Origin: Candidatus Harrysmithiimonas galli
GTDB lineage: Bacteria > Bacillota > Bacilli > CAJFEE01
NCBI GenBank assembly: GCA_904373265.1
Contig: CAJFEE010000008.1
Coordinates: 1,132 to 65,131, forward strand
Reading direction: 5' to 3'
DNA length: 64,000 nucleotides
The translations under genes were made by a program, and so were the position numbers. The notes below the pieces were generated by a model. The model did no database searches and was not told the DNA's origin. It worked only from the letters and a program-made list of their open reading frames with translations. Positions 8,462-57,772 of this stretch are shown piece after piece. Numbering within the stretch: the stretch's first letter is position 1; every line of letters begins with the position of its first letter.

Positions 8462-10234
8462 TCACTCAAATTGTTCAACAACATCTATAAACGGATATAA
8501 TTCTTCTAATGACGAAGAGCTTAATGTACCATCTTGGTTTACTTTTGTTTGTGCTCTTGGAATCTCCTCAAATCTAATATCTCCAATTATTTCACAAATC
8601 ATTGGACGGTTATCTGACAAAGCCATTTTCAACCCTTCACTCAATTGATTTGTATGTTCAATTTTCAAATAAGGTAATCCGTATAGTTTCGCAATCTCTT
8701 TTAAATCCGGCAATCTAACCCCACTGTCTGCATTACAACCTGCCAAATTTCCTTTAAAATGATTATGTTGCATACTATATATGGACGAATATCCATTGTT
8801 ATTATAAATAAATAGTTTGATTGGTAATTGGTAAGTTGTCAGCAGTTGAAGTTCTTGTAAATTATGTTGCAAACTTCCGTCACCTTCAAAAATAATGGTT
8901 CTTCTCTTTCCACTTGCAATACATGCACCAATTACAGAAGGTAAACCATAACCCATAGAGCCTAAACCGCTTGATGAAACAACTCTTTGATTTTCTTTTA
9001 ATTGTATTCCCAAAACAGACGAAGTAAATACACGACCTGTTGGACTCACAACAAAAACATCTTGATCGTCTGATTGTTTGGATAACTCATATGAAAAATC
9101 TAACCCATAAATTCCTTCAGACTGAACAGGCGGTCTTTCTGAATAAATCGGGTATTTTTCTTTCATTTGTTCACAAAAATTCAGCCATTTAGTTTTTGTA
9201 TTAACAAATTTTTGTTCAGAATAAAACACCAAAAATCCTCGCATAAAATCTTTTGCATGACAACAAATTTTCTTCTGAAAGTCGATAGATGATATATTTA
9301 ATTCGTTTTCATCTATATCTACAATATATTTTTTTGCCTTCTTCGCGAAGTTCTTCTCATTATACGCTGTTAAATGTGCATTAATCCTTGCACCAATGAT
9401 CAATAAAAAATCAGCATTTTGCAAAATAAAATTGGAATAGCGTGGTGCGGGAGAGCCCGGATATCCAAAAAATAATGAATCATTATCTTTAAATAAGCCT
9501 TTGGCACGCCATGTCAACAATGTTGGAATTTTTAATTGTTCAACTAATAGTCTTGCTTCTCGTTCTGCTTGTCCCGAAATTACACCTTGACCAAACAAGA
9601 CAATTGGACTCTTAGCCTGTATAAGTTCACAGTATATTTCTTCAAAGTCTTCTTGTTTTACAATGGTTTGGGCACCCTTTTCCAAATGTGGACAAAATCC
9701 TTTTAATGTTTCTATATCAACATCAGCAGCTTGAATATCTAGAGGGATATCAATCCATACTGGTCCTTTTCTTCCTGTCGTTGCCAAATGTATGGCTTTC
9801 TCTAAATGATAACGAATATCTTCTTTATTCATTACTGTAACTGCATATTTTGTAACATCTTTCACCAATTTTGTAATTTGTACTTCTTGTAGACCCTTCA
9901 CACGCACACCTTCTGGCGCAAGCTCTGTTGTTTTAACTTGCCCAGAAATTACCAGCATTGGTGTGCTATCTTGAAAAGCAGAGACAACTCCAGTAATCGC
10001 ATTCGTTGCTCCTGGTCCTGTTGTTACCATACAAACGCCTAAATGGTTTGTATATTGCCCGTAAGCATCGGCACAAATTGATGTCGCTTGTTCATTTAAA
10101 TTATAGTAAGTCGAAATTTGTTCGCTTCTAGAAACGGAATCTAAAAGATGCATCATACCTCCACCTGAAAGTAAAAATACATCTCTTACTCCAATTTGTT
10201 CTAGATAATGAATTACATAATCTGATAATTTCAT
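8462..10234 (-). CDS. Thiamine-diphosphate-dependent enzyme of the acetolactate-synthase family (YerE-like sugar C-branching candidate)
   Basis: 590 aa with N-terminal ThDP pyrimidine-binding domain (GVCMVTTGPGATN). The C-terminal GDGSLQHNLQEL...NNNGY is a ThDP/Mg-binding motif. It sits inside a CDP-sugar cluster, not an ilv operon. Confidence 0.8.
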   Translation of the reverse strand: MKLSDYVIHYLEQIGVRDVFLLSGGGMMHLLDSVSRSEQISTYYNLNEQATSICADAYGQYTNHLGVCMVTTGPGATNAITGVVSAFQDSTPMLVISGQVKTTELAPEGVRVKGLQEVQITKLVKDVTKYAVTVMNKEDIRYHLEKAIHLATTGRKGPVWIDIPLDIQAADVDIETLKGFCPHLEKGAQTIVKQEDFEEIYCELIQAKSPIVLFGQGVISGQAEREARLLVEQLKIPTLLTWRAKGLFKDNDSLFFGYPGSPAPRYSNFILQNADFLLIIGARINAHLTAYNEKNFAKKAKKYIVDIDENELNISSIDFQKKICCHAKDFMRGFLVFYSEQKFVNTKTKWLNFCEQMKEKYPIYSERPPVQSEGIYGLDFSYELSKQSDDQDVFVVSPTGRVFTSSVLGIQLKENQRVVSSSGLGSMGYGLPSVIGACIASGKRRTIIFEGDGSLQHNLQELQLLTTYQLPIKLFIYNNNGYSSIYSMQHNHFKGNLAGCNADSGVRLPDLKEIAKLYGLPYLKIEHTNQLSEGLKMALSDNRPMICEIIGDIRFEEIPRAQTKVNQDGTLSSSSLEELYPFIDVVEQFE

Positions 10235-24034: not shown

Positions 24035-24952
24035 TTATGTATCATTCTTCAGATGATTGATTCTTTTTTTGGGTAACTGCTTTTCTGGTCTCTCTGCAAT
24101 ATAAACACCACAAATAATAAAAACCGAACCAAGCAAAGCATAAATGGTAATTGACTCATTTAAAAACAACCAAGCGAAAAGCATCGTTAAAAATGGAACA
24201 AAATAAATAAAATGATTCGTTTTTACAGCACCCAACACATAAATGGCCTGATTCCAAACTACAAAACATAGCCCCGATGCAACAATTCCCAAAAAAAACA
24301 AATTCCCCAAAACAACTGGCTGTATCCATCGTTCCAGATCCCAAGTAAACTCTCCAAAGATAAGAAACGGAAATGATGTCAATACACTATAAAAGAAAAC
24401 TTTTCGCGTCACATAAATTGCCGAATGCCCGGTTTGAATTAACTTAATAAAAATCGAATAAAACGCAAAGGACAACGCTGCTACACCAGCAAGCAAATCA
24501 CCGATCGGGCTGATCTGCAAAACAACTTGCCCATTAAAAATCACAAAAGCTACACCGATAAAAGCTAAAATACCACCTATGAATAGTTGCTTTTTTAATG
24601 GCTCTCCACGTACCATAAAATGTGCCAAAAATGCAGTGATAATTGGAATTCCTGCTGTAATTAGTCCTACATTGGTGGCGAGCGTATATTTTAACGCATA
24701 ATTTTCTGTAAAAAAATATAAACTACCGCCAAAAAAGCCAGCTAATCCATAATAGAATTCTGTTTTTTTGTTTTGAACTGGATAAAACTTCGGATGCAAA
24801 AGCAATAAGACTATATAGGCAATCACAAAACGAAAAAACATGATTTCCTCAGGACTTAAATACAAAAGTAAAGCTTTTGTTGAAACAAAAGTAAAACTCC
24901 ATACCATAATTGTAAAAAAGGCTAGAAAATAGTACATCCATTCTTTTCTCAA
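24035..24952 (-). CDS. DMT-superfamily (EamA-type) transporter
   Basis: 305 aa, about ten hydrophobic segments, two-EamA-repeat architecture. Confidence 0.8.
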   Translation of the reverse strand: MRKEWMYYFLAFFTIMVWSFTFVSTKALLLYLSPEEIMFFRFVIAYIVLLLLHPKFYPVQNKKTEFYYGLAGFFGGSLYFFTENYALKYTLATNVGLITAGIPIITAFLAHFMVRGEPLKKQLFIGGILAFIGVAFVIFNGQVVLQISPIGDLLAGVAALSFAFYSIFIKLIQTGHSAIYVTRKVFFYSVLTSFPFLIFGEFTWDLERWIQPVVLGNLFFLGIVASGLCFVVWNQAIYVLGAVKTNHFIYFVPFLTMLFAWLFLNESITIYALLGSVFIICGVYIAERPEKQLPKKRINHLKNDT

Positions 24953-25947
24953 ATTACCTCTCCTCTCTAAATTTTTACGTGTTTTACTTCATCCTATTTA
25001 TGGAATAAGGAAATAGAATTTATCTTTACCAACCGCTTTTATCTAGTCTGACAAAATATTATTTTCTGTCATGAAAAATAGAAAAAAGAAGTCTCACACT
25101 CGGAAAATAAAGAATGCAAAACTTTCTTAATTATAAAAAATATATTTGATGTTTAATTGTAGATTTTACACAAATCAGAAAATCACTACTTCATACATGA
25201 ATGGATGCAGCCTTGTACCAAAACACTTTGAAAACTTTTTTAGAAAATCATCCCAAAAATTGACAAATAAGCTCTCTGTTCACATTCGTATATTATTGAT
25301 ATCTTTTTACTACAATTTATTCTAAATCATGTATTTTTATTCTGAATTTTTTAAAACTCTTCTTTTAGATTTTTGTACTTCTTGATCATCCTTGTCAATA
25401 TTGATCATTTTTTAAACCATTTTACCTGTTTCTTTACTGGCCTTGATTTGTTCCAGACACTTATGATTTAACAGATTCTCTGATACAGGCTTCATGTTTT
25501 GTCTTGGATCAGTTTATTCTTTTACTCTATTCATCAACAACAAGGATCTTATTTTATTTTTCATTTTTCTTCACAAAATTTTTCCAGATTATTGTTTTTC
25601 ACCAACAATTGACTTTTGAAAACTGGAATTTTGAGTTAAATTGATTTTCATCGTTTTTTGTCCTTTTTCATTACTTCCCATTATCTTTTGTAAAGAACTA
25701 CCAATAGAATTCTATCATTTCAAATCTATTTCTGCAAACGCTTATGTACCAATATATTTCAAGTTATCAAAGTTTTATGATTTTCATGGACTTCCAATAA
25801 TAGGAACCAATTTTTACTCATTTTGTTAAACAATGACAGAAAAAAAGAGCTTTGATAATTAGATAAATACCGATAGGGAAATATTGAAGAGAACTTATTA
25901 TTCACGATGACAGACAGAGGCTAGGATAAAATAATAAAAATATAATG

Positions 25948-25995
25948 AAAAAATCCAATATAATCTATGTAAATTCAAATTTATGTTGGATTTTT
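25948..25995. terminator. Orphan bidirectional hairpin in an ORF-poor region
   Basis: aaaaaatccaatataa / ttatgttggattttt, ~15 bp stem with one G-U pair, flanked by A and T runs. Confidence 0.35.
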
Positions 25996-26712
25996 CTATG
26001 CAATCTAAGAAAATAAATCCCATTTGGAAAATTTTCCTTACATTTATTGTCATAAGGACAAACCCTAATTCATTAAGATGGGAAATCTAACTGGAAAAGA
26101 GGATGTTTTTACACTCTCAAAATTGTAATATAACAGAAGAAATAAAACGATAAATTATAATTTTCAAAAAATAAGAATGTAGAAAACAGATTGATGATTG
26201 GATAGGATACCATGAATTTATGAAAATGGCACAAACTACTTTGGATTGTGCTTGCATGATTTTTACATATGTAGATGGTAAAATTGAATATGGAAATCAA
26301 CATAGTTTGTGAAAATGAACACAGTGATTCTTTCTTACTGTTCGTACCAAACATACCATGAAACGATAGCATAGGTTTCAGAGAGTTGCACTCTTGCTGT
26401 CAGATATATAGAAGCAGGTTTTTCCTATATCAGTTATAAGAAAAGGGAGACTTCTTGTAACAAGGCATACTGGAAAACAAGATCGTGTAATTGCTTGAAC
26501 ATGTTAAAAAGGAACTATGATATTGAATCTAGTTAAAAATTAACTGAACGTAGGAGATTTCTATAATGAAAAATAATCATCTATGAATCAATCATTTTGT
26601 GATTTGATAAATATAGTTTATATTAAAAATAACAAAATACCTCAAAAAACCCATCTTTTAAGGTATCTTGTCTTCACCTTGGCTCTATATTTCATAAGAA
26701 CTTTTTAGTCAG

Positions 26713-27972
26713 CTATGCCCACTTTCTAATCAACTTGAATCTTTGATTGTTTCCACCATGATAAGGATATTGAATTGCCTCTGTATAATTACTTGTAGAA
26801 TTATCAGACATATCCAATACTTGTCCCGTTTTGACATTTGTAATTACACATTCATACTGTTTAAGCCAGCCATCTGAGATGGTTCTGACAAGAGAAATCC
26901 GCCATAGCTGTTCATCCTGACCTGTATATGGAAATTGAATAATAGGTGTTTCTTTTGCCATGTCTCCTCGTGCAACTTCTAGCACTTTACCAGATTTATT
27001 ATTGGTAATTTTATATTTTCCATTTCCAACGTGAACAATCGTCCAATATTGATAATTTTCCCAGTTAGGACTATCTGCATAGGTATATTGGTATACATGC
27101 TCACTTGATTCATTGTTTGGAACCGTTAATGCTTTGTCACTTGAACTGAGTGGACAAATCGCATAACCACCATCTAAAATAGATGGTTGATACTTTTTGT
27201 CTACAATTCCCATATACCAATTGTAAACTTTTTCATTAATTTTCACGCCACCATTTTCGTTATTTGGCCCATATGCTGCATTATGAATTCCTAAAACTTC
27301 ATAAATCCCGCCTTTTTCCGCTCTATATACTGGGGCACCACTAAGCCCTGGACCTGTCTCTAAATTATAAATCATAGTTTGATTATTACTTCTTAATAAA
27401 TTACCCGTTAATTGGTACATTTCTCTTCCATTCCCCTTAGGTAATACACCCGCTAAGTTTAATTCTTCCCCTACTGTTAAAGATTGATTACTCAAAAAGA
27501 AATTTACCCAATAATTCGGATAGACATCCTTATCTAAAGGAGCATTTAAAATAAGTGCTGCATAATCTTGTGTTAAACTCCCAGATAAGTCTATATTATC
27601 TACTGTCCAACTTACATATCTCGGATTTACCTCAATTTGGTCAATTTTATAAGGTCCTCCCCATGTATTATTTTTAGTTGGCACATAAACAGATACAGAT
27701 TTTGCATATTCTTTTTTATCTGCATCATAAACACAATGTGCAGCTGTAACGATTATATGATCATTAATAAAAAAACCACTTCCAGATGTTTGACCATCGG
27801 AAAATTGCGAAATAATATTTACAATGTTAGAATATGGTGCCTGTGAAATATTTGTTATAGAAACTTTATTTCTCGTTTCTACAATACTAGAACTTTCAGC
27901 AAATGTATTTTCATAACTTGTAACACAAAATGTTACAATACAAGCAAAAAAAACATAAATAATCTTTTTCAT
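26713..27972 (-). CDS. Secreted trypsin-fold (S1B/V8-like) serine protease fused to a C-terminal ricin-type beta-trefoil lectin domain
   Basis: Signal peptide MKKIIYVFFACIVTFCVTSYENTFA. Catalytic triad context: VTAAHCV, DYAALIL, GPGLSGAPV. The C-terminal ~130 aa carry three QxW-like repeats (YQYW, EQLW, NQRF). Confidence 0.85.
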   Translation of the reverse strand: MKKIIYVFFACIVTFCVTSYENTFAESSSIVETRNKVSITNISQAPYSNIVNIISQFSDGQTSGSGFFINDHIIVTAAHCVYDADKKEYAKSVSVYVPTKNNTWGGPYKIDQIEVNPRYVSWTVDNIDLSGSLTQDYAALILNAPLDKDVYPNYWVNFFLSNQSLTVGEELNLAGVLPKGNGREMYQLTGNLLRSNNQTMIYNLETGPGLSGAPVYRAEKGGIYEVLGIHNAAYGPNNENGGVKINEKVYNWYMGIVDKKYQPSILDGGYAICPLSSSDKALTVPNNESSEHVYQYTYADSPNWENYQYWTIVHVGNGKYKITNNKSGKVLEVARGDMAKETPIIQFPYTGQDEQLWRISLVRTISDGWLKQYECVITNVKTGQVLDMSDNSTSNYTEAIQYPYHGGNNQRFKLIRKWA

Positions 27973-28121
27973 TATAAAATCTCTCCTTTCAGTATTTCAT
28001 AAATAATCTTTCTCATCATAAAATCTCCTCCTTTCAGTATTTATTCTTCTATATCTACCAAAATAATCCTTTTATCAACATATATCATTCATATAAATTT
28101 CACAAAAATCTGCGATCATTG

Positions 28122-28246
28122 TATATATTTAAATTAAATGATAAAAATTTATATGATTTTATGTGTACATTTAAATTGATATAAAATAAAAATATAATTT
28201 ATTTTTTATTAAATTAAATATTATAAATATAAATTTGGATTTATTT
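28122..28246. other. Near-pure A/T island
   Basis: About 7 G/C in 125 bp, with 68 consecutive A/T at 28179-28246. It lies upstream of the protease gene. Confidence 0.6.
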
Positions 28247-28707
28247 TTGGCTTTTCCCATACTTATGATAAAAAAACAAATGAACCTTCACAAAAACGAA
28301 TACAAGCTCTACACCAATTTTTCTATTTTTATAGATGTTTCTAGTTTCTTATTTTAAAAGCCATTTGATGGTCTAGAGTTTAAAATACTCCTTGTTGGAT
28401 TCTTTTCAATTCCCTTTCATTTATCTATCTGACTTTGCTTTCATTCACGTTTCTCAGATCAAGCAATCTATAAACGTTCACATAAATATCATTTAAATTC
28501 TTTACGTTTTCCACATTTATCTGTTAATTATGCATGCCTTGTAATAAGAAACATAACAACCATAAAGACAATCCTGATAATCTTTAATTATGCATAAGTA
28601 TAGTTATTTCATATTGCAATAAATTATATATAAAAAATTATTCTTAAAATTTTTGTGATATAATTTTCACTTTAGTTAAGAACGGTTTCTCTATTTTATT
28701 GAAAAAT

Positions 28708-28756
28708 TAAAAAAATGCAAAATCAATGATCATTCATCAATTGATTTTGCATTTTA
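28708..28756 (-). terminator. Terminator of the CoA-transferase...PEBP operon
   Basis: atgcaaaatcaat / attgattttgcat stem; on the minus strand it is followed by T7. Confidence 0.7.
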
Positions 28757-28810
28757 TCTCAGTCTCTTTCTCAACGATTTTTAGCAGTAATGTTCATAGA
28801 CCGAATACAA

Positions 28811-29311
28811 TTAGTTTTTATACTCACCCTTAATCACAACTTCTTCTAAAACATGCCCTTCCATTTGTCTAAACATTTCATTCATATAAAAACCAGGTTT
28901 TAAGTCAAGAACTGTGTCTAATGCATATACACGAAGTTCATAAATATGTGGTGCATCTGGTGGTGCCATCCCTCCATAGTAGCTACATGATTCAGCTGGA
29001 TGTGACCCTCCTTGAATACTTAACCAACTGTTTACACCTTGTACAAAATCTTTTGCAGTTTGACTTTCGTTTTCTTGCAATTCATCGCGCTGAATATTTG
29101 CTGCTACCCAGTGCACCCAAACAAATCCACCGCTGACTGGAAATGCATCTTTGTCATCTAAAACCAGTGCGTAACTTTTTGTTCCAGCTGGTGCATCTTC
29201 AATTTTTACAGGAATGGAATACGTTGGCATACCTAATGCATTTAATTCTCCACGCTTACCATACTTATCTTCGAATACTCCGTTAACGATTGCACTACTT
29301 GTTACTTTCAT
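28811..29311 (-). CDS. YbhB/YbcL (PEBP, Raf-kinase-inhibitor-like) family protein, cytoplasmic form
   Basis: 166 aa with VNGVFEDKYGKRG...DKDAFPVSGGFVWVHW...YELRVYALD, typical of bacterial PEBP. No signal peptide. Confidence 0.85.
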   Translation of the reverse strand: MKVTSSAIVNGVFEDKYGKRGELNALGMPTYSIPVKIEDAPAGTKSYALVLDDKDAFPVSGGFVWVHWVAANIQRDELQENESQTAKDFVQGVNSWLSIQGGSHPAESCSYYGGMAPPDAPHIYELRVYALDTVLDLKPGFYMNEMFRQMEGHVLEEVVIKGEYKN

Positions 29312-29336
29312 TTGTCATTTCTCCTTTATGATTTTT

Positions 29337-30221
29337 TTATTTAATATGAATATGATGACCACTATAATTTCCTTGAATAATCGTTGTTTGCCATTTTGAC
29401 AGATCCAATAATTTTTGGAAATTAATATTTGTCTCATATCCCATTTTCTCTAACATATAAACCAAATCTTCTGTTGCTGTATTCCCAGATGCACCTGGTG
29501 CAAATGGACATCCTCCAAGTCCCCCCAATGTAGACTGAACTTCAGTTATCCCACACTCAATGGCTGCCAATGTATTTACCATCCCCATATTACGTGTATC
29601 ATGAATATGGATTTGAAATGTACAATCTGGATAAATTTCCAAAACTTTCTTTATAATTTCTCGGACTTGTTTTGGATGGGCAACACCAATTGTGTCGCAA
29701 AGATTAAATAAACGAATCCCCTTTTCATATAAGTTTTGTAAGAAATCTAATAAAGCAACAATACCTAGATCCCCTTCAAATGGACAACCAAAAACAGTCG
29801 CAATATCTACACATACCTCAAGCTGTGGATACGTATGTAAAATACGCTCTAGCTCTTCCAACGATTGTTCTCGTGACCGATTGATATTGGCACGATTATG
29901 GCTTTCACTTAATGAAATAACATTTGTCACCTTTTTTAGACCCGTTTCATATGCCATTTGTGCACCACGCAAATTGGGTACAAGCGCAAATAAATCAAGT
30001 GTCGGATACTTTTTTAAACAAATTTCTACAATTTCTTTTGCATCCCGCATTTGTGGAATGGCTTTGGGGCTTACAAACGATGTAATTTGCATATGCTGTA
30101 TACCAGCATCTACGAGCTTGTCAATGATTTTTAATTTTGTTTCAACAGGGATATAATCGCATATGTTTTGAAATCCGTCACGTGGTCCAACCTCAAAAAT
30201 TTGAATTTCCACCAACATCAC
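29337..30221 (-). CDS. HMG-CoA-lyase-family (HMGL-like) acyl-CoA lyase; citramalyl-CoA lyase candidate
   Basis: 294 aa with EVGPRDGFQN and HIHDTRNMG...GGLGGCPFAPGASGN motifs. Confidence 0.85.
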   Translation of the reverse strand: MMLVEIQIFEVGPRDGFQNICDYIPVETKLKIIDKLVDAGIQHMQITSFVSPKAIPQMRDAKEIVEICLKKYPTLDLFALVPNLRGAQMAYETGLKKVTNVISLSESHNRANINRSREQSLEELERILHTYPQLEVCVDIATVFGCPFEGDLGIVALLDFLQNLYEKGIRLFNLCDTIGVAHPKQVREIIKKVLEIYPDCTFQIHIHDTRNMGMVNTLAAIECGITEVQSTLGGLGGCPFAPGASGNTATEDLVYMLEKMGYETNINFQKLLDLSKWQTTIIQGNYSGHHIHIK

Positions 30222-31366
30222 TCCTTATATACAGATTTTCTTACATATACATAACCATCCATAATCATTCTTGCTGTTCGATATACCCCTAGCTTTGTAA
30301 TCTTATCTCCAACACATTTGGCTTCAATCGGAATTACACCTGATGGGTGACCAATTTTTAAAATATCTGCCTGCTTTGCTTGATCAGATAATAAATCCCA
30401 TACAATACTTCCTTTGATTCTTGCAGCTGCACCTGTAGCAACCGTACCTGTTACAGGATAAGCTTTATGCATTTTTAACATAAATGTCAATCTAGAAATC
30501 ACATCTACATCATCTGGACAGATTTGAACACCATTGAAACATTTATGTGTCGTTGGAGCACTTACCATTGCAAAAAATGGTTGGTAAGGTGTTTCAACTT
30601 TTGCATCTTGCCAATGTTTGACCATCCCGATTTTCTCACATACTTTTCCACGAATTTCTTCAATTCGCTCCAGCAATTTTTCATCGCTATCAATTTCCAT
30701 AGGTGTTTCCGTACCTTTTAATCCAAGCTCCTCTGCACGGATAAAAATAACAACATTTCCTGCATCTACAATGGATACACTATATGTTTCTCCACCTGCT
30801 TCAATAAAATCTTTGGCTTGACCTGTTGGTAATAGATGTCCAGTAATTCCACCGACAACATCTGACCAATCTAATGTAATTTTCGCACCTGTACCTGGTA
30901 CACCGTCAATGGAAAAATCTCCTTGTACTGCTGCACGACCATTTTTTACAGGAACTTCAGCTACTAATATTCTCCCAGTATTGGTTAAATGAATCCGAAT
31001 CGTTGTAACTGGCTCTTGAATCCGAACCAATCCCATATCAATTGCGAAAGGTCCTACAGCTGAAGAAATATTTCCACAATTTCCACCATAATCAACAAAT
31101 GCATCGGTTATACTTACTTGTCCAAATGTATAATCAATGTCAGCATCCGGATGGGTAGCCGAACCAATAATAGCAAGCTTACTTGTCAGTGTATCACCTC
31201 CACCTAAGCCATCAATTTGTCGCAAATCAGGACTCCCATAAATTGCAAGAATGACTTGATCTCGAAGTATTGGATCTTTTGGTAATGCATTTTCTAAAAT
31301 AAAAATTCCTTTACTCGTTCCACCTCGAACAATGGCACAACGAAGCATTTCCATCTCTGAATGCAT
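30218..31366 (-). CDS. PrpF / methylitaconate-delta-isomerase-family isomerase
   Basis: 382 aa with RCAIVRGGTSKGIF N-terminus and a YGGNCGN motif. Confidence 0.85.
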   Translation of the reverse strand: MHSEMEMLRCAIVRGGTSKGIFILENALPKDPILRDQVILAIYGSPDLRQIDGLGGGDTLTSKLAIIGSATHPDADIDYTFGQVSITDAFVDYGGNCGNISSAVGPFAIDMGLVRIQEPVTTIRIHLTNTGRILVAEVPVKNGRAAVQGDFSIDGVPGTGAKITLDWSDVVGGITGHLLPTGQAKDFIEAGGETYSVSIVDAGNVVIFIRAEELGLKGTETPMEIDSDEKLLERIEEIRGKVCEKIGMVKHWQDAKVETPYQPFFAMVSAPTTHKCFNGVQICPDDVDVISRLTFMLKMHKAYPVTGTVATGAAARIKGSIVWDLLSDQAKQADILKIGHPSGVIPIEAKCVGDKITKLGVYRTARMIMDGYVYVRKSVYKE

Positions 31367-31415
31367 ATTTTCTCCTCCTAAATTCTTATGATCAAATTCC
31401 TGTACAATAAAAGAC

Positions 31416-31907
31416 TCATAATTTTTTTTTCAAATATGAAATAAGTCCTCCTGATGATACCAACTCAATAATGTGCGGCGGAATTTTATCACAAACATAT
31501 GATTTCCCTGTAGTTAAATTTTGGATAATCCCTTTTTCATAATCAACTTGCAGTTTATCGTCTGCTGAAATTTCATGTGTATCTTTGCACTCAATCGCAA
31601 GAATTCCTAAATTGATACAATTTCGATAAAAAATTCTTGCATAGGATTTTGCCAGGATGGTTCGAATCCCTAGTTGTCGTAAAGCCAGTGGAGCTGTTTC
31701 ACGACTTGACCCTGAACCACAGTTATTTTCCGTTACAAAAATATCTCCAGGATTACACCGTTTTGCAAAATCTGGATCAATTGGATACATTGCATATTTT
31801 GCAGCCTCTTCAATCGGTAATTCCATATATGCAGGTGGAGAAATAATATCTGTATTGATATTATCTCCATATTTCAAGGCTTTACCTACTCTACCAATCA
31901 TGACCAT
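31416..31907 (-). CDS. Aconitase-family hydratase small subunit (short LeuD/HacB/DmdB-like form)
   Basis: 163 aa with GDNINTD and GSGSSRE motifs. Confidence 0.85.
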   Translation of the reverse strand: MVMIGRVGKALKYGDNINTDIISPPAYMELPIEEAAKYAMYPIDPDFAKRCNPGDIFVTENNCGSGSSRETAPLALRQLGIRTILAKSYARIFYRNCINLGILAIECKDTHEISADDKLQVDYEKGIIQNLTTGKSYVCDKIPPHIIELVSSGGLISYLKKKL

Positions 31908-31933
31908 CCTCCGTAAATTATTATTTTTTTATT

Positions 31934-33193
31934 TTACAAAAATTGACGTGGGTCTGTTAACTCTCCAGTAATTGCAGAGGCTGCTACAGATAATGGTGAG
32001 GCTAAATAAACTTCTCCTTGCTTACTTCCCATACGTCCAATAAAGTTTCGATTGGTCGAAGAAATACAAACTTCTCCCGCACCAATCGCACCTGAGTGTA
32101 TACCTAAGCAAGCCCCACAGCTGGATGCCAAAACAACTGCACCTGCCTCAGACAAATCAGATAAAATTCCTTCTTTTGCACAACGATCCCATATCTCACG
32201 AGAAGCGGGGGAAACAAGCAGACGAACCCCTTTGGCAACCTTATGTCCTTTTAATAGCTTTGCTGCAAGTTTCAAATCATTATATCTTCCACCTGTACAA
32301 GAGCCAATATAAGCCTGATGAATCTGTCTTCCCTGTACATTTTTAATTTCTGTTACATTGTCTACCTCATGTGGACAAGCACATAATGGTTCAATTTCTT
32401 CTGCACGTAAGTTGTATGATTCACAATACTCAGCATCTACATCACTTGTAAAAATATGTCCACCTTTTACACCAATGGAATCTAAATATTGCTTTGTAAT
32501 CTGATCATATGCAATAATCCCATTTTTTGCTCCTGCTTCAACTGCCATATTGGTTACACAAAGTCGCTCATCCATCAACATACTGTCAAATGTACTGCCA
32601 GTAAATTCGATTGCCTTATAAGTTGCTCCATGATGTCCAATGATCCCGATTGAACGAAGAATCACATCTTTTGCCATGACACCTTTAGAAAGTTTACCTT
32701 CAAATTGAAAGCGAATGGTTTGAGGAACTTTTAACCAAATTTCTCCTGTTGCCAAAACGCCTACCATTTCTGTAGAACCAATCCCTGTTGAAAACGCGCC
32801 AAGTGCACCGTACATACAAGTATGTGAATCTGTTCCAACAACAACATCTCCTGGTGCTACCCTTCCTTTTTCAACCATCACTTGATGACAAGGTCCTTCA
32901 AATTCATGATAATTTTCAATTCCGTTTTTCATAGCCCATTCTCTTGTAAACTTTACAATTTCTGCCTGCCTTGCATTCGCTGGTGGTGTATAGTGATCTG
33001 AAATAATGGTTACCTTTGATGAATCCCAAACTTTTGCACCTAAAAGCTCCATCTGCTCTGAAATTTGTACACGTGGTCCAAGAATATCATCCATCATTGC
33101 TTGGTCAACCTTTATCCATAAAATATCTCCAGCTTTTGCATAATCTTTTCCAGATGCTCTTGCCAGAATTTTTTCAGTCATCGTCATCCCCAT
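31934..33193 (-). CDS. Aconitase-family hydratase large subunit (short LeuC/HacA/DmdA-like form)
   Basis: 419 aa with VGTDSHT, IGSCTGGR and SCGACLG Fe-S ligand motifs. Confidence 0.85.
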   Translation of the reverse strand: MGMTMTEKILARASGKDYAKAGDILWIKVDQAMMDDILGPRVQISEQMELLGAKVWDSSKVTIISDHYTPPANARQAEIVKFTREWAMKNGIENYHEFEGPCHQVMVEKGRVAPGDVVVGTDSHTCMYGALGAFSTGIGSTEMVGVLATGEIWLKVPQTIRFQFEGKLSKGVMAKDVILRSIGIIGHHGATYKAIEFTGSTFDSMLMDERLCVTNMAVEAGAKNGIIAYDQITKQYLDSIGVKGGHIFTSDVDAEYCESYNLRAEEIEPLCACPHEVDNVTEIKNVQGRQIHQAYIGSCTGGRYNDLKLAAKLLKGHKVAKGVRLLVSPASREIWDRCAKEGILSDLSEAGAVVLASSCGACLGIHSGAIGAGEVCISSTNRNFIGRMGSKQGEVYLASPLSVAASAITGELTDPRQFL

Positions 33194-33206
33194 TCGAATC
33201 GACTCC

Positions 33207-34406
33207 TTACAATACTTTTTCTTCTATGAGTTTGTCGATCTCTTCTTTTGTGAATCCAAGCTCTTTTTGTAAAATTTCTACCGTATGCTCTCCAAGAATT
33301 GGTGCATGTGTAAATGTATCAATCTTATGATTGGTTAACTTGATCTGATTGCCTGTCATTTTAAGTTTTCCAGCCTTCGGATGGTCAATTTCTACAAACA
33401 TTTCCCTTGCACCTGCAATATGCGGATCTGCAACTACTCGATCAATGGTGTTAATCGGCGCAGCAGGAATCCCTACTGCGAGTAATGCCTCAACGGTTTC
33501 ATCAATTTTTTTGTCTTTTAACCATTCTTCGATAATTGGTTTTAACTCTGCATGATTTAAAACACGCTCATTATTACAAGAAAATCTATCATCTTCTAAA
33601 AGCTCTGGTGTTCCCATTACATCACATAATAAGGAAAATAACTTATCATTTCCTGCACCAATTACAAGACTACCATCCTGTGCTTTAAAAGAATCGTATG
33701 GGTAAATTGCTTCATAACGGTTTCCAATACGATTAGGAACTTTTCCTGTACACAAATAAATAATATTAATGATTTCAAGAGAAGAAACCATGGAGTCAAC
33801 CAAAGCCACATCGACTTTCTCACCTTCTCCTGTTTTTAAACGATTAATATAAGCAGCTAAAACACCTACACAGCAAGACAATCCTGCCATAACATCTGCA
33901 ATGGCTGTTCCTGTTCTTGTAGCTTCTCCACCAGGCCAACCTGTTGTGCTCATAAGCCCACTCATTGCCTGACCAATAATGTCATAGCCAGCCCGCTTGC
34001 TGTAAGGCCCGTAGTGTCCAAAACCAGAAATAGAACCATAGATAATGCTTGGATTGATTTTCTTTAACTCTTCATAACCAAGTCCTAGCTTCTCCATTAC
34101 ACCTGGACGATAATTTTCAATTATGATATCACTTTTCTTTACAAGCTCTCTAAAAATTTCTTTCCCTTTTTCAGATTTTAAATTTAACGTCATCCCTCGC
34201 TTATTTCGATTGAGGTTCATATAATACGCACTTTCTCCGCCAACAATCGGATAATTTGAACGTGAATCATCTCCTTTTCCTGGTAGTTCAATTTTCAAAA
34301 CATCGGCCCCCATATCCGCAAGCATCATTGCACAGTATGGGCCGGCTAATACTCTAGATAAATCTAAAACTTTTACGCCACTAAGTAAACCTCGTCTGCT
34401 TTGCAT
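33207..34406 (-). CDS. Family III CoA-transferase (CaiB/BaiF family)
   Basis: 399 aa with VLDLSRVLAGPYCAMMLADMGADVLKIE. The RBS aaaaggagg precedes the ATG. Confidence 0.9.
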   Translation of the reverse strand: MQSRRGLLSGVKVLDLSRVLAGPYCAMMLADMGADVLKIELPGKGDDSRSNYPIVGGESAYYMNLNRNKRGMTLNLKSEKGKEIFRELVKKSDIIIENYRPGVMEKLGLGYEELKKINPSIIYGSISGFGHYGPYSKRAGYDIIGQAMSGLMSTTGWPGGEATRTGTAIADVMAGLSCCVGVLAAYINRLKTGEGEKVDVALVDSMVSSLEIINIIYLCTGKVPNRIGNRYEAIYPYDSFKAQDGSLVIGAGNDKLFSLLCDVMGTPELLEDDRFSCNNERVLNHAELKPIIEEWLKDKKIDETVEALLAVGIPAAPINTIDRVVADPHIAGAREMFVEIDHPKAGKLKMTGNQIKLTNHKIDTFTHAPILGEHTVEILQKELGFTKEEIDKLIEEKVL

Positions 34407-34494
34407 ATAGAAAACCTCCTTTTTTCATATTGCTGTGCTAATTTTGTTAGCCAGTTTATTCATAACCTACTTTATACAAAATTAAAATTTATTT

Positions 34495-34514
34495 TTATGC
34501 ATAAGTTATGCATA
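34495..34514. promoter_or_regulatory. Tandem TTATGCATA x2 upstream of the CoA-transferase operon (candidate operator)
   Basis: ttatgcata ag ttatgcata, read directly, ~90 bp upstream of the start codon. Each unit contains the palindrome TATGCATA. Confidence 0.35.
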
Positions 34515-34554
34515 GATAAATCCTCTCATCTTTGTACTTACTTAAATAAAACAT

Positions 34555-34617
34555 AAAAATAGAAAAACTCTTGATACAAATAACTTAGTAATTCTCTAAG
34601 TTCAATATATCAAGAGT
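34555..34617 (-). terminator. Terminator after the hxlR-like gene
   Basis: actcttgata (34567-34576) pairs with tatcaagagt (34608-34617), with an inner aacttag/ctaagtt helix. A T-run follows on the minus strand. Confidence 0.55.
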
Positions 34618-34628
34618 CGCTTTATAAA

Positions 34629-34650
34629 GTAAATTACTTACTTTTTTGTA
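34629..34650. repeat. 22-nt repeat copy 1: gtaaattacttacttttttgta
   Basis: Identical to 36148-36169. It contains the imperfect palindrome GTAAATTACTTAC. Confidence 0.9.
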
Positions 34651-34683
34651 GGTATATACTTACTTTTTGGTTTGTATTTAAGC

Positions 34684-35055
34684 TTATTCATCTAGTAAAC
34701 CTTTCTTTAGTAAAATTTCTTTTTGTCCATTTTGCAACATAAATTTGATACCTAACTTTTGATAAATTTCTAAGGCACGCAAAACCTCTTTTCCGTTTTC
34801 TGTTAAAAAATACTCTGTTCGCAAAGGATAGGTATCCTGGCTAATTTTATCTACAAGCCCATAAGTCTGAAGCTCTTTTAAATGCTGCATTAACATTTTT
34901 TCTGTAATTCCATTAATATCACGGCGGAGCTGAGAAGGGGTTGTTGCCCCAAGACGTAAACGCCAAATAATAATACATTTCCATTTTCCTTTCATCATGT
35001 CATGAATCAGTTCCAATGGACAAGTATAATTTTCTCGAATCAGCATACATCTCAC
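34684..35055 (-). CDS. HxlR-family (MarR-like winged helix) transcriptional regulator
   Basis: 123 aa with CPLELIHDMMKGKWKCIIIWRL, characteristic of the HxlR family. Confidence 0.85.
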   Translation of the reverse strand: MRCMLIRENYTCPLELIHDMMKGKWKCIIIWRLRLGATTPSQLRRDINGITEKMLMQHLKELQTYGLVDKISQDTYPLRTEYFLTENGKEVLRALEIYQKLGIKFMLQNGQKEILLKKGLLDE

Positions 35056-51099: not shown

Positions 51100-51681
51100 T
51101 TAGAATTTCAGTTGATTTTCTTCAAATGCAATAATTTTATCCTCATTTTGCAATGTAATTGAAATATCATCTAAACCATTTAACAATTTATCCTTCCATG
51201 CTGGATCAATCTCAAATGTAAAAGAAAAATCTGGTGTATAAACAGTTTGCTCCTCTAGATTCACTGTAATTTCCACATCACCTGGCAATTCTGCGAGATT
51301 TTCACGAATTTCCTTGGAAGCAACAATCGGAAGCATTCCGTTTTTTAAACAATTCATATAAAAAATATCCGCAAAACTCCCAGCAATAATGATTTTAAAT
51401 CCATAGTCATTTAAAGCCCATGGTGCATGCTCACGTGAAGAGCCACAGCCAAAATTCTCTCCTGAAATTAAAATACTTGCGCCTTTTCGGTCTGGTGCAT
51501 TTAAAGAAAACGCCATATTATCAGAACGATCTTCCAAATACCGCCATTCATCAAATAAATACACACCAAACCCAGTTCGCTCAATTCGCTTTAAATATTG
51601 TTTTGGAATAATTTGGTCAGTATCAATATGATCCAGCATAAATGAAACAGTTGTTCCTTTGTGTATACGTAATGGTTCCAT
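51100..51681 (-). CDS. leuD: 3-isopropylmalate dehydratase small subunit
   Basis: 193 aa with [15 protein letters not shown] and [13 protein letters not shown]. Confidence 0.92.
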
Positions 51682-53054
51682 TAAAACTCCTCCTTTCGAA
51701 CATCAATAAAATAGCCATGTACAGCCGCTGCTGCAGCCATAAGTGGACTACATAAATGTGTACGTGCACCCTTTCCCTGACGTCCTTCAAAATTCCGATT
51801 TGAAGTAGAAGCACAATGCTCACCACCAGGAACTTGGTCAGGATTCATACCCAAGCACATGGAACAACCCGGTTCCCTCCATTCACAACCCGCTGCCTCA
51901 AAAATCTTATCCAATCCAAGATTCATCGCTTGTTGACGAACCGTTTTTGATCCTGGAACAACCAAAACGCGTATACCTTCTTTTACTTTTTTTCCTTTTA
52001 AATAATTTGCTGCAACCTGTAAATCCGATAAACGTGAATTTGTACATGAACCAATAAATACATGCCGAATTGGAATATCCCGCCCAGTCATCCCCGGCTT
52101 CAATCCCATATATTCATAAGCACGAGCATCATTTGAGTCCTTGATTTCTGGCATTTTCTCAGTAATTTCCATTCCCATGCCTGGATTGGTTCCCCATGTA
52201 ATCATAGGTGCAAGATCAGATACATCAAGCGAAATTTCTTTATCAAATTTCGCATCTGCATCAGTATACAGTTCTTTCCAAATTGCAATGGCTTTCTCCA
52301 TATCCTTTGGTGCATATTTTCTACCAGAGACGTACTGAAAAGTTGTTTCATCTGGTGCAATCAGCCCAGCCTTTGCTCCACCTTCAATAACCATGTTACA
52401 AATCGTCATCCGTTCCTCCATGCTCATATTGGAAATGGTTTCACCATAAAATTCAATAACATGCCCAGTTCCCATATCTACACCATATGTTGCAAGCAAT
52501 TTCAAAATAACATCTTTTGCAAAAACACCCTTTTGCAATTTTCCGGTAATCTTTACACCCATAGATTTTGCTTTCTTTTGATACAAAGTTTGAGTTGCCA
52601 AAACATGTTCAACTTCACTTGTACCAATCCCGAAAGCAAGTGCACCAAACGCTCCATGTGTTGCTGTATGACTGTCACCACACACAATTGTTTTTCCTGG
52701 CAAAGTTAAACCGAGCTCTGGCCCAATGACATGTACAATCCCAACACGAGCATCTGTTACATCTGCCAACTCTACACCGAAATCTGTACAGTTTCTTTTT
52801 AATGCATCCAATTGTTGCTTGGAAATTTCATCCTTAACAACAAGTTGATCATCTGTTGGAACGTTATGATCCATTGTTGCAAACGCCTTATCCGGACGAC
52901 GGACTTTTCGATTTGCTAATCTTAAGCCTTCAAATGCTTGCGGAGAAGTCACTTCATGCAACAAATGTAAATCAATATATAAAAGTTGGCTTTCTCCATC
53001 TTTTCCAGAAACAACATGCTGTTCCCAAAGTTTATCATATAATGTTTTTCCCAC
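51681..53054 (-). CDS. leuC: 3-isopropylmalate dehydratase large subunit
   Basis: 457 aa with [29 protein letters not shown] and CSMCLGMN. Confidence 0.94.
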
Positions 53055-53067
53055 GAAAAATCCTCCT

Positions 53068-54108
53068 TTATTTTAATACAGCAATCATAGCTTGTGTAAA
53101 TTCTGTTGTAGATGCCGTACCACCTAAATCTTTTGTGCGAATACCTTGATCCAGTACAAAATGAAGTGCTTTTTCCACATCCACATAGCCTGCTTTTAAA
53201 TCAAAATCATTTAGCATCATTGCCATGGAACGGATCATGCCGATTGGATTGGCAATATTTTGACCAGCAATATCTGGCGCAGAGCCATGAATCGGCTCAT
53301 ATAATGTCGGTCCTGCAGTTGAATAGCTGGCAGAAGGTAAAAGACCTAAAGAACCTGCAATCATAGATGCTTCATCACTTAAAATATCACCAAACATATT
53401 TTCTGTTACAATAACATCAAAACGTGATGGACAACGAATCAATTCCATTGCAGCCGCATCAACCAACAAATGCTCCAATTCCACATCTGGGTATTTCTTG
53501 GCAGTCTCCAATGCCACTTCACGCCATAGCTTACTGGAACTGAGCACATTTTCCTTATCAATAGATGTTACCTTTTTTCTCCGTTTTCTTGCGGTTTCAA
53601 AAGCAAATGTGATAATACGTTCAATTTCCTCACGTGTATACATTAACGTATCCATTGCCTCTTCATGTGTAAACTTTTTCGGCTCACCAAAATAAATGCC
53701 ACCAATCAACTCTCGAACCACAATAAAATCTACATTTTTTACATTTTCTTCTTTCAACGGCGAAAATGTAGCAAGCTGTGGAAATACTTCCAATCCACGA
53801 ACATTGGCATATAAATTCAATGCTTTACGGATTGCAAGTAAACCTTTCTCTGGGCGATCCCCATCTCCACTCCACTTTGGTCCTCCAACAGCTGCCAAAA
53901 GTACTGCATCACTATTTAAACAAGCCTTTAAGGTTTCCTCTGGTAAAGAGCTCCCCTTTCTATCTATAGCAATTCCACCAAAATCATACGTTTCAACTTC
54001 AAATTCATATTGGTGTTTGTTAGCAATAGCCTGTAAAATTTGCAGTGCACTGTCCATAATTTCAGGACCAATCCCATCTCCTGGCAAACAAATAATTTTC
54101 TTTTTCAT
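53068..54108 (-). CDS. leuB: 3-isopropylmalate dehydrogenase
   Basis: [27 protein letters not shown] and GSAPDIAG. The ATG at 54108 follows aaaggagag. Confidence 0.93.
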
Positions 54109-54137
54109 TTTTCTCTCCTTTATCATTCAGATATATA

Positions 54138-57471: not shown

Positions 57472-57760
57472 AATCCATTTATATAAATAAAAACAGTCTT
57501 TCGCCCCATAGCTTCAGCGCTAAAGGGGCGAAAGACCGCGGTACCACCCTTCTTATGGACAAACTGTCCACATCTCTCTATTTACTTAAAACACATAAAT
57601 AGATCCGCCTTAACGCAGCGTAACGTCTATAATTTTGGCAAATCTCAGCCGTTTGTTATAGCACTCCTTGGTGATTTTCATTGGAATAGAAGCACCGACT
57701 CACACCTCCGTCGGCTCTCTGGATGTCTTCTAAAACAACTACTTTCCAAATCAATGTTTT
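57472..57760 (-). promoter_or_regulatory. T-box riboswitch leader controlling ilvB-N-C-leuB-C-D
   Basis: Minus strand carries the T-box sequence AAGGGUGGUACCGCG (57550-57537). The terminator is GUCUUUCGCCCC...GGGGCGAAAGAC plus a U-run (57536-57485). The AG-bulge and distal loop read AGAGAG-CCGAC-GGAGGUGUGA-GUCGG. The specifier loop UGAAAAUCA gives AUC (Ile) in my manual fold (57675-57673). Confidence 0.85.
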
Positions 57761-57772
57761 CTTTGTATATTT

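Follow-up and report, generated by a model that had tools for sequence, protein, structure and literature searches.

A conserved isomerase–hydratase–CoA-transferase–lyase operon as a candidate late-activation route for itaconate and citraconate

Itaconate, which macrophages make as an antimicrobial and immunomodulatory metabolite, is also produced by fungi and used in industry as a monomer; only one bacterial route for its degradation, Ict/Ich/Ccl, is established. In this route, encoded by ripABC in Yersinia and PA0878-0883 in Pseudomonas, itaconate is activated by a coenzyme A (CoA)-transferase, hydrated by a MaoC-type enzyme to (S)-citramalyl-CoA, and cleaved by a CitE-type lyase to pyruvate and acetyl-CoA. 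Related chemistry occurs in the nicotinate-fermenting Eubacterium barkeri, whose trio of Mii, DmdAB and Dml applies a PrpF-fold isomerase and then a two-subunit LeuCD-type Fe–S hydratase to a free methylene- or cis-dicarboxylate; its last enzyme, Dml, belongs to the ICL/PEP-mutase family. Friedmann et al. are said to have described, in 2006 and 2007, a Chloroflexus aurantiacus family III succinyl-CoA:D-citramalate CoA-transferase that works with an R-citramalyl-CoA lyase of the 3-hydroxy-3-methylglutaryl-CoA (HMG-CoA) lyase family, HMGL. The LeuCD of M. jannaschii (4kp1, 3vba), a biosynthetic enzyme, interconverts (R)-citramalate and citraconate. Here we describe a minus-strand operon at 28811-34406 of a 64,000-nucleotide stretch (the window) of contig CAJFEE010000008.1 from Candidatus Harrysmithiimonas galli, an uncultured gut member of the Bacillota known from metagenome-assembled genomes and metagenome contigs, in which genes for a family III CoA-transferase, a LeuCD-like hydratase, a PrpF-family isomerase and an HMGL-family lyase stand side by side.

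Family assignment of the open reading frames in the window with Pfam and NCBIfam models yielded the following genes, in order of transcription:

33207-34406, minus strand: family III (CaiB/BaiF) CoA-transferase, 399 aa, operon gene 1, PF02515
31934-33193, minus strand: aconitase-superfamily hydratase large subunit, archaeal-type LeuC-like, 419 aa, PF00330
31416-31907, minus strand: hydratase small subunit, LeuD/DmdB-like (Aconitase_C), 163 aa, TIGR02087
30218-31366, minus strand: PrpF-family allylic (delta) isomerase, Mii-like, 382 aa, PF04303
29337-30221, minus strand: HMG-CoA-lyase-family acyl-CoA lyase, 293-294 aa, PF00682
28811-29311, minus strand: cytoplasmic PEBP (YbhB/YbcL family), 166 aa, last operon gene, PF01161 and TIGR00481

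The gene content and coordinates given by a first-pass annotation, made from the DNA alone, thus hold: every reading frame was found on the minus strand and the models confirmed its family. The six genes, from CoA-transferase to PEBP, are separated by gaps of 13, 26, 49 and 25 bp, and the isomerase stop and the lyase start share the string GTGATG. The overlap between these two genes is 4 bp, as first annotated, if the lyase begins at GTG, and 1 bp if it begins at ATG, the start chosen in public gene calls.

We propose that the operon serves the breakdown of a branched dicarboxylate, exo-methylene or cis-unsaturated, that the cell imports. Its generic four-step chemistry (isomerisation, hydration, late CoA activation and cleavage) we regard as quite probable, whereas itaconate/citraconate, the most likely substrate, is a call that could go either way. 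On this proposal, the Mii-like isomerase would move the double bond of itaconate to give citraconate, and the LeuCD-like Fe–S hydratase would add water to citraconate to give (R)-citramalate, both enzymes acting on free acids. The family III CoA-transferase would next activate the C4 carboxyl with acetyl-CoA or succinyl-CoA as donor, and the HMG-CoA-lyase-family enzyme would split (R)-citramalyl-CoA into pyruvate and acetyl-CoA, the latter of which could re-prime the transferase. In generic form, a methylene- or trans-acid would pass through a cis-2-substituted butenedioate, a 2-substituted malate and its C4-CoA ester to a 2-oxo acid and acetyl-CoA.

We infer the substrate identity, the stereochemistry, the CoA donor and, from the capabilities of the enzyme families, the reaction order. 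PrpF-type enzymes catalyse allylic proton shifts on free acids, and aconitase-type hydratases bind free α-hydroxy-dicarboxylates through their Fe–S cluster; hydration should therefore precede CoA activation. HMGL-type lyases convert 3-hydroxy-3-substituted acyl-CoAs into acetyl-CoA and a carbonyl compound. The Chloroflexus transferase and lyase, as reported for D-citramalate and R-citramalyl-CoA, make the (R) stereochemistry of the proposed route self-consistent. They belong to the two families proposed here for the last two steps, but in Chloroflexus neither an isomerase nor a hydratase is linked to Sct and Ccl. The Ict/Ich/Ccl route shares with our proposal the substrate, the end products pyruvate and acetyl-CoA and the use of a CoA-transferase; it differs in that the operon is predicted to hydrate the free acid with an Fe–S enzyme, to activate late and to proceed through the (R) isomer. 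Consistent with this distinction, none of the operon proteins matched a MaoC-type itaconyl-CoA hydratase or a CitE-type lyase in Pfam or NCBIfam. With itaconate as substrate, the scheme is identical to the pathway put forward in the first-pass annotation; late CoA activation follows from the enzyme families, while the substrate itself is a proposal, with trans-aconitate and other alkylidene-succinates as rivals.

The isomerase matches PF04303 with 383 bits over residues 8-375, indicating a full-length PrpF fold. As first annotated, it lies close to Mii: the closest solved relative is E. barkeri Mii (3g7k; 406 bits, 53% identity), against 234 bits for PrpF. Residues K63 and C97 align with K73 and C107, the catalytic Lys/Cys pair of PrpF (PMC5690661), and are invariant across 12 homologues. 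Mii has been reported to act on itaconate too (PMC4720413, citing Velarde 2009). A member of the cluster at least 90% identical to the window isomerase carries the NCBI name '3-methylitaconate isomerase'. In a neighbour-joining tree, however, the window isomerase falls apart from 3g7k, in the clade that is tied to the transferase and the lyase. Its clade is sister to the Mii clade, and the enzyme is not a Mii orthologue; given this separate clade and its gene context, the NCBI name reflects family resemblance, not orthology.

For both hydratase subunits, the best solved match is the M. jannaschii isopropylmalate/citramalate isomerase, in agreement with the LeuC/LeuD-like assignment made initially. 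The large subunit matches 4kp1 with 418 bits, homoaconitase with 344 and aconitase with 121; the small subunit matches MjLeuD (3vba) with 146 bits and homoaconitase with 111. The large subunit passes the subfamily models NF001614 and TIGR01343 but falls under the equivalog cut-offs of LEU2 (457 against 611) and HacA (435 against 550), and the small subunit passes TIGR02087, the LeuD/DmdB family model, but fails the leud equivalog (159 against 246). In translation, the large subunit keeps the Fe–S cysteine motifs IGSCTGG and SSCGACLG as well as STNRNFIGRMG (NRNFxGR), and the small subunit keeps GSGSSRE (GSSRE). The recognition region of the small subunit governs substrate preference in this enzyme class (PMC7308503). 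In the window protein this loop, NTDIISPPAYMEL, is clade-specific, and it is highly conserved in the window clade as NTDIISPP[A/Q]YMEL. In its place, isopropylmalate/citramalate isomerase has ARYLVYT, homoaconitase GPYLRTT, and DmdB of nicotinate clusters LPGYAMA or ARYLNT. The YME(L) loop fits none of the characterised specificity classes. Its conserved Glu takes the position of the homoaconitase Arg (YLRT), which argues against a tricarboxylate such as cis-aconitate or homoaconitate.

The window holds a canonical leuB, leuC and leuD at 51100-54126 (leuCD at 51100-53054) that exceed the NCBIfam equivalog cut-offs; between this leuCD and the operon pair, identity is only about 31%. The earlier statement that leuCD is present separately at 51-53 kb and that the operon pair does not serve leucine synthesis is thus borne out, since the canonical genes pass the equivalogs that the operon pair fails. 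A biosynthetic leuCD or homoaconitase identity was rejected on these grounds and on the loop, which reads YMEL instead of YLVY or YLRT. Compared with M. jannaschii LeuCD, its closest solved relative, the operon hydratase thus differs in its loop and in its setting, a catabolic operon. The ilv/leu biosynthetic operon that holds the canonical leuBCD is preceded by a T-box leader (57521-57763, 114 bits).

The CoA-transferase matches PF02515 over its full length with 430 bits. It scores far under the cut-offs of all NCBIfam equivalogs (350 of 750, 338 of 522 and 329 of 700), among them succinate-glutarate, YfdE and succinyl-CoA:mesaconate. Its closest solved relative is human SUGCT (9br6, 322 bits), with which its RAGYD motif aligns; the conserved Asp of the family III GYD motif is catalytic. 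By these similarities, the enzyme sits among family III transferases for C4-C6 dicarboxylates (SUGCT, succinate-glutarate and succinyl-CoA:mesaconate), and the family III assignment stands.

The lyase matches PF00682 with 157 bits and passes NF004283, an HMG-CoA lyase subfamily model, with 285 bits against a cut-off of 246; B. subtilis HMG-CoA lyase (1ydo, 230 bits) is its closest solved relative. As expected from its initial placement in the HMG-CoA-lyase family, every catalytic residue of HMG-CoA lyase is retained: none of R14, D15, H205, H207, C238 and N247 (Arg-Asp, HxH, GGCP-loop Cys and Asn) varies among 37 members of the clade. At seven otherwise conserved positions the clade departs from the two reference enzymes compared, the B. 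subtilis and human HMG-CoA lyases (W54A, F101V, S141A, Y148F, G175C, A213G and Y240F). These substitutions are consistent with an altered specificity.

To place the operon in a wider context, one genome per species was scanned with an alignment of isomerase homologues. Among the 580 relatives obtained, the 80 best loci were searched with the window proteins and with marker proteins. All four enzyme types, that is, CoA-transferase, HMGL, LeuCD and Mii together (C-type loci), are co-located in 36 of the 80, and their order takes at least 10 different forms. The module is carried, among others, by Peptoniphilaceae, Tissierellales, Lachnospiraceae (Mediterraneibacter and Dorea), Oscillospiraceae, Flavonifractor, Clostridium, Eubacterium multiforme, Negativicutes (Anaerospora), Peptococcaceae, Acidobacteriota, Anaerolineales and three Edwardsiella species; in another member of this genus, E. 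piscicida, only a deleted remnant is left. Culturable carriers include Edwardsiella hoshinae ATCC 33379, E. ictaluri, Eubacterium multiforme DSM 20694, Anaerospora hongkongensis DSM 15969 and Dorea sp. D27. Because the linkage of the four enzymes has survived reshuffling across phyla, we conclude that they serve one shared pathway and that the operon is not an orphan, as it had been called. The first-pass annotation had also suggested asking whether its five-gene block recurs across genomes; the four enzyme types do, and a PEBP gene accompanies them in 6 of the 36 loci.

Accessory genes in the related loci encode carboxylate carriers of the CitMHS/MatC, EamA, TctABC or TRAP type and PrpR-type sigma-54 activators, which fit uptake of an external carboxylic acid. 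Lachnospiraceae versions of the module also carry acylating-type aldehyde dehydrogenases. No CitMHS, PrpR or aldehyde dehydrogenase homologue was found within the window. An EamA gene at 24035-24952 was considered as a linked transporter and rejected, being unrelated to the cluster-linked EamA of Edwardsiella and Clostridium.

Remnants of the module were seen in fish pathogens. In E. piscicida ACC35.1 (L040, ~9154-9429), a deletion of ~3.2 kb relative to E. anguillarum (L041, 6198-9428) takes most of the CoA-transferase, the lyase and the hydratase large subunit, so the module is decaying in this lineage. On plasmid p17Y0159.1 of Yersinia ruckeri (L087, 5635-8093), an aconitase-family gene that is truncated accompanies a small subunit and a PrpF gene of 60% identity, and a Piscirickettsia salmonis plasmid (L088, 8983-10167) holds a lone PrpF gene (50% identity) between IS elements. 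These plasmid copies are decayed remnants and uninformative on function. The operon itself gave no match in a megablast search against plasmids, and a mobile-element or plasmid origin was rejected on that result.

The isomerase–hydratase pair also occurs in other company. In the neighbour-joining tree, E. barkeri Mii clusters with loci that lack the transferase and the lyase. Instead, these loci encode a B12-binding mutase, a lyase of the PEP-mutase/ICL family, and a hydratase whose large subunit is only 35-45% identical to that of the window. One of the loci, from Sporomusa (L076), holds by Pfam a complete nicotinate cluster: Fe–S reductase, hydroxymethylglutarate dehydrogenase-like protein, mutase, MutL-type reactivase and Dml-type lyase. 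No homologue of 2-methyleneglutarate mutase (MgM) or Dml was found within the window; neither was seen in 35 of the 36 C-type loci, and MgM appeared once, at a distance. The operon thus parallels the E. barkeri trio in its first two steps, but its proteins fall in separate clades, its recognition loop differs, it has no B12 mutase, and cleavage would be left to a CoA-transferase and an HMGL-family lyase. An identity with the nicotinate-fermentation enzymes (Mii sensu stricto) was rejected on isomerase phylogeny and gene context.

Elsewhere, the pair stands with a Dml-type lyase and no mutase in view (L016, L060 and L044), in one case (L044, 6854-16804) together with an MmgE/PrpD protein and a TRAP transporter. 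In Moorella mulderi (L034, 3122-13267), it accompanies TctCBA and an OYE/enoate-reductase-like flavoprotein. In Oscillospiraceae (L051, 8928-18761; also L045, L052, L070 and L072), it is found with an MmgE/PrpD protein, and the other neighbours are carbamate-kinase-like, PreA-like DHO_dh-ferredoxin, amidohydrolase and OTCase-like genes; this looks like an uncharacterised fermentation cluster for an N-heterocycle (pyrimidine- or orotate-like). The isomerase–hydratase pair is thus a reusable two-step unit in several pathways. No transferase–lyase pair was seen in loci with an enzyme that can generate an exo-methylene acid, either a B12 mutase or a PrpD-family enzyme. In the C-type module, a transporter takes the place of this generator, which implies an imported, exogenous methylene-dicarboxylate.

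Several observations count against itaconate or citraconate as this substrate. No transporter is linked to the operon within the window, and the CitMHS and TctABC carriers of related loci transport tricarboxylates too. One of the Mii-related PrpF proteins, Adi1 of U. maydis, is an aconitate isomerase (PMC4720413). The Glu of the hydratase loop is not obviously required for a methyl or hydrogen substituent and could indicate a polar one instead. The top solved relative of the CoA-transferase is an HMG/glutarate enzyme, and the NF004283 and 1ydo matches of the lyase would be compatible with true HMG-CoA specificity.

Four alternatives were weighed. Trans-aconitate catabolism would use the same families, with the isomerase converting trans- to cis-aconitate, the hydratase forming citrate, the transferase citryl-CoA, and the lyase oxaloacetate and acetyl-CoA. 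Besides the kinship with Adi1, an aconitate delta-isomerase, and the tricarboxylate carrier families CitMHS and Tct, the binding of trans-aconitate by PrpF speaks for it (PMC5690661). The hydratase, though, is far nearer to isopropylmalate/citramalate isomerase than to aconitase (418 against 121 bits), its loop has Glu where the tricarboxylate-using homoaconitase has Arg, and the carriers fit MatC_N, a dicarboxylate carrier family, at least as well as they fit CitMHS. In favour of trans-aconitate, the source metagenomes come from herbivore and animal guts, in which it is abundant; against it, to our knowledge, there is neither an HMGL-family citryl-CoA lyase nor a family III citrate CoA-transferase. 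On balance we judge trans-aconitate improbable. Another alkylidene- or alkyl-succinate or maleate (an ethylidene- or longer alkyl-itaconate, a hydroxylated itaconate, or mesaconate reached by allylic shifts), yielding a different 2-oxo acid with acetyl-CoA, deserves more weight, though we still think it unlikely. The enzyme logic suits any 2-substituted malate, the YME(L) loop lies outside the characterised classes, the lyase has clade-specific pocket changes of its own, and the acylating-type aldehyde dehydrogenases of Lachnospiraceae would fit as well. Against it, the operon lacks tailoring enzymes for bulkier substituents, and itaconate is the only abundant natural methylene-succinate of gut, soil and host that we know of.

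A branch of nicotinate fermentation with CoA-dependent cleavage, leading from 3-methylitaconate through dimethylmaleate, 2,3-dimethylmalate and its CoA ester to propionyl-CoA and pyruvate, would account for Mii as the top solved relative, for the NCBI name of the isomerase and for the match to TIGR02087, a model that spans LeuD and DmdB. It is difficult to reconcile with an isomerase outside the Mii clade, which is the clade linked to B12 mutase, Dml and DmdAB, with Mii-clade large subunits of just 35-45% identity, with a different DmdB loop, and with the absence of MgM and Dml homologues from the window and the single distant MgM among the 36 C-type loci; we consider it highly improbable. Least probable of all, in our estimate, is catabolism of 3-hydroxy-3-methylglutarate (or of a leucine type) by a genuine HMG:CoA-transferase and HMG-CoA lyase, with the isomerase and hydratase unrelated or acting as a feeder. 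The NF004283 match and the relation of the transferase to a succinate-hydroxymethylglutarate CoA-transferase are what it would explain. However, the four enzyme types stay linked through many rearrangements, implying one pathway, seven conserved positions of true HMG-CoA lyases are changed in the lyase clade, and HMG lacks the α-hydroxy-dicarboxylate (malate-type) skeleton that aconitase-family hydratases need by established enzymology.

Precedents exist for each enzyme family and each single reaction type in the proposed itaconate/citraconate route; the novelty lies in how they are combined and in how widely the combination is distributed. Papers from 2023-2026 that deal with the metabolism of branched C5-dicarboxylates give no route other than Ict/Ich/Ccl and its feeders, and one of them states that the Pseudomonas pathway does not use (R)-citramalate or citraconate. 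Full-text literature searches returned no description of the cluster or of an isomerase-first itaconate route. We tentatively suggest, with rather more doubt than for the substrate, that the module is a second widespread itaconate/citraconate route in anaerobic gut and soil bacteria and in macrophage-dwelling Edwardsiella, with PEBP as an accessory and HxlR as a possible electrophile sensor. If so, this route, with its oxygen-independent chemistry, would alter what genomes predict about how itaconate, citraconate and (R)-citramalate are turned over in guts and soils, and would correct the misleading labels '3-methylitaconate isomerase', '3-isopropylmalate dehydratase' and 'HMG-CoA lyase' given to such proteins. 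It would also offer a candidate resistance or nutrition trait in Edwardsiella, and enzymes for the production or recycling of C5 dicarboxylates. The relevance to macrophage itaconate raised in the first-pass annotation is speculative for an uncultured gut bacterium, but the module in Edwardsiella makes the idea testable. Even with another substrate, the conserved four-enzyme module would define a pathway that can be tested directly.

The remaining features around the operon concern its expression and the PEBP and HxlR genes:

28712-28755, minus strand: intrinsic-terminator hairpin with U-run at the operon end, 3' of PEBP; dG -19.6 kcal/mol, z -4.2
34420-34560, minus strand: operon leader/promoter region, with a AAAGGAGG ribosome-binding site before the ATG, read from the sequence
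34490-34512, minus strand: direct repeat TATGCATAA-CT-TATGCATAA, between the HxlR terminator and the ribosome-binding site
34566-34618, minus strand: terminator hairpin 3' of the HxlR gene; dG -23 kcal/mol, z -5.5
34684-35055, minus strand: HxlR-type (DUF24/MarR-like) regulator with an N-terminal Cys-Pro motif, PF01638
35460-36083, minus strand: second PEBP paralogue (Pfam), 207 aa, lipoprotein-like N-terminus

HxlR, encoded just upstream of the operon, is a separate transcript because it has its own terminator at 34566-34618, which places the operon promoter within 34420-34560. No shuffled sequence folds as well as the hairpin that follows the PEBP gene. In this AT-rich DNA, matches to the sigma-70 consensus in the leader are no commoner than in shuffled sequence, and none could be singled out; a sigma-54 -24/-12 element was sought in the leader by eye, and the spacing was unsuitable. 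The view of the block as one transcription unit is therefore supported at its end, by the terminator hairpin and the tight gene spacing, whereas its promoter is not distinguishable from shuffled sequence. The direct repeat is a possible operator. Rfam and tRNA scans gave nothing near the operon.

The operon PEBP and the second PEBP both match PF01161 and TIGR00481 and are 72% identical to each other. PEBP genes stand beside the module in 6 of the 36 module loci against none of 15 nicotinate-type loci, and they do so in unrelated taxa (L011, 4280-4783; L018, 4702-5256; L028, 11419-11976). Their placement varies: the PEBP gene comes first in L011, is divergent with a Crp-like regulator in Lachnospiraceae and lies downstream in Edwardsiella hoshinae. 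If the module is a second itaconate/citraconate route, PEBP would be an accessory component not recognised before. The HxlR protein matches PF01638 with 69 bits (cut-off 20.8) and has its Cys-Pro motif within YTCPLE, and an HxlR and PEBP pair lies upstream of the module in L010 too. The regulator may serve the PEBP genes instead of the operon; that a thiol-based HxlR senses the electrophile itaconate is a conjecture.

Just downstream of the operon, at 26713-27972, lies a gene for a secreted protein that joins a trypsin-like serine protease to ricin-B lectin repeats, flanked by spacers at 24952-26713 and 27972-28811 that are poor in open reading frames and rich in AT.

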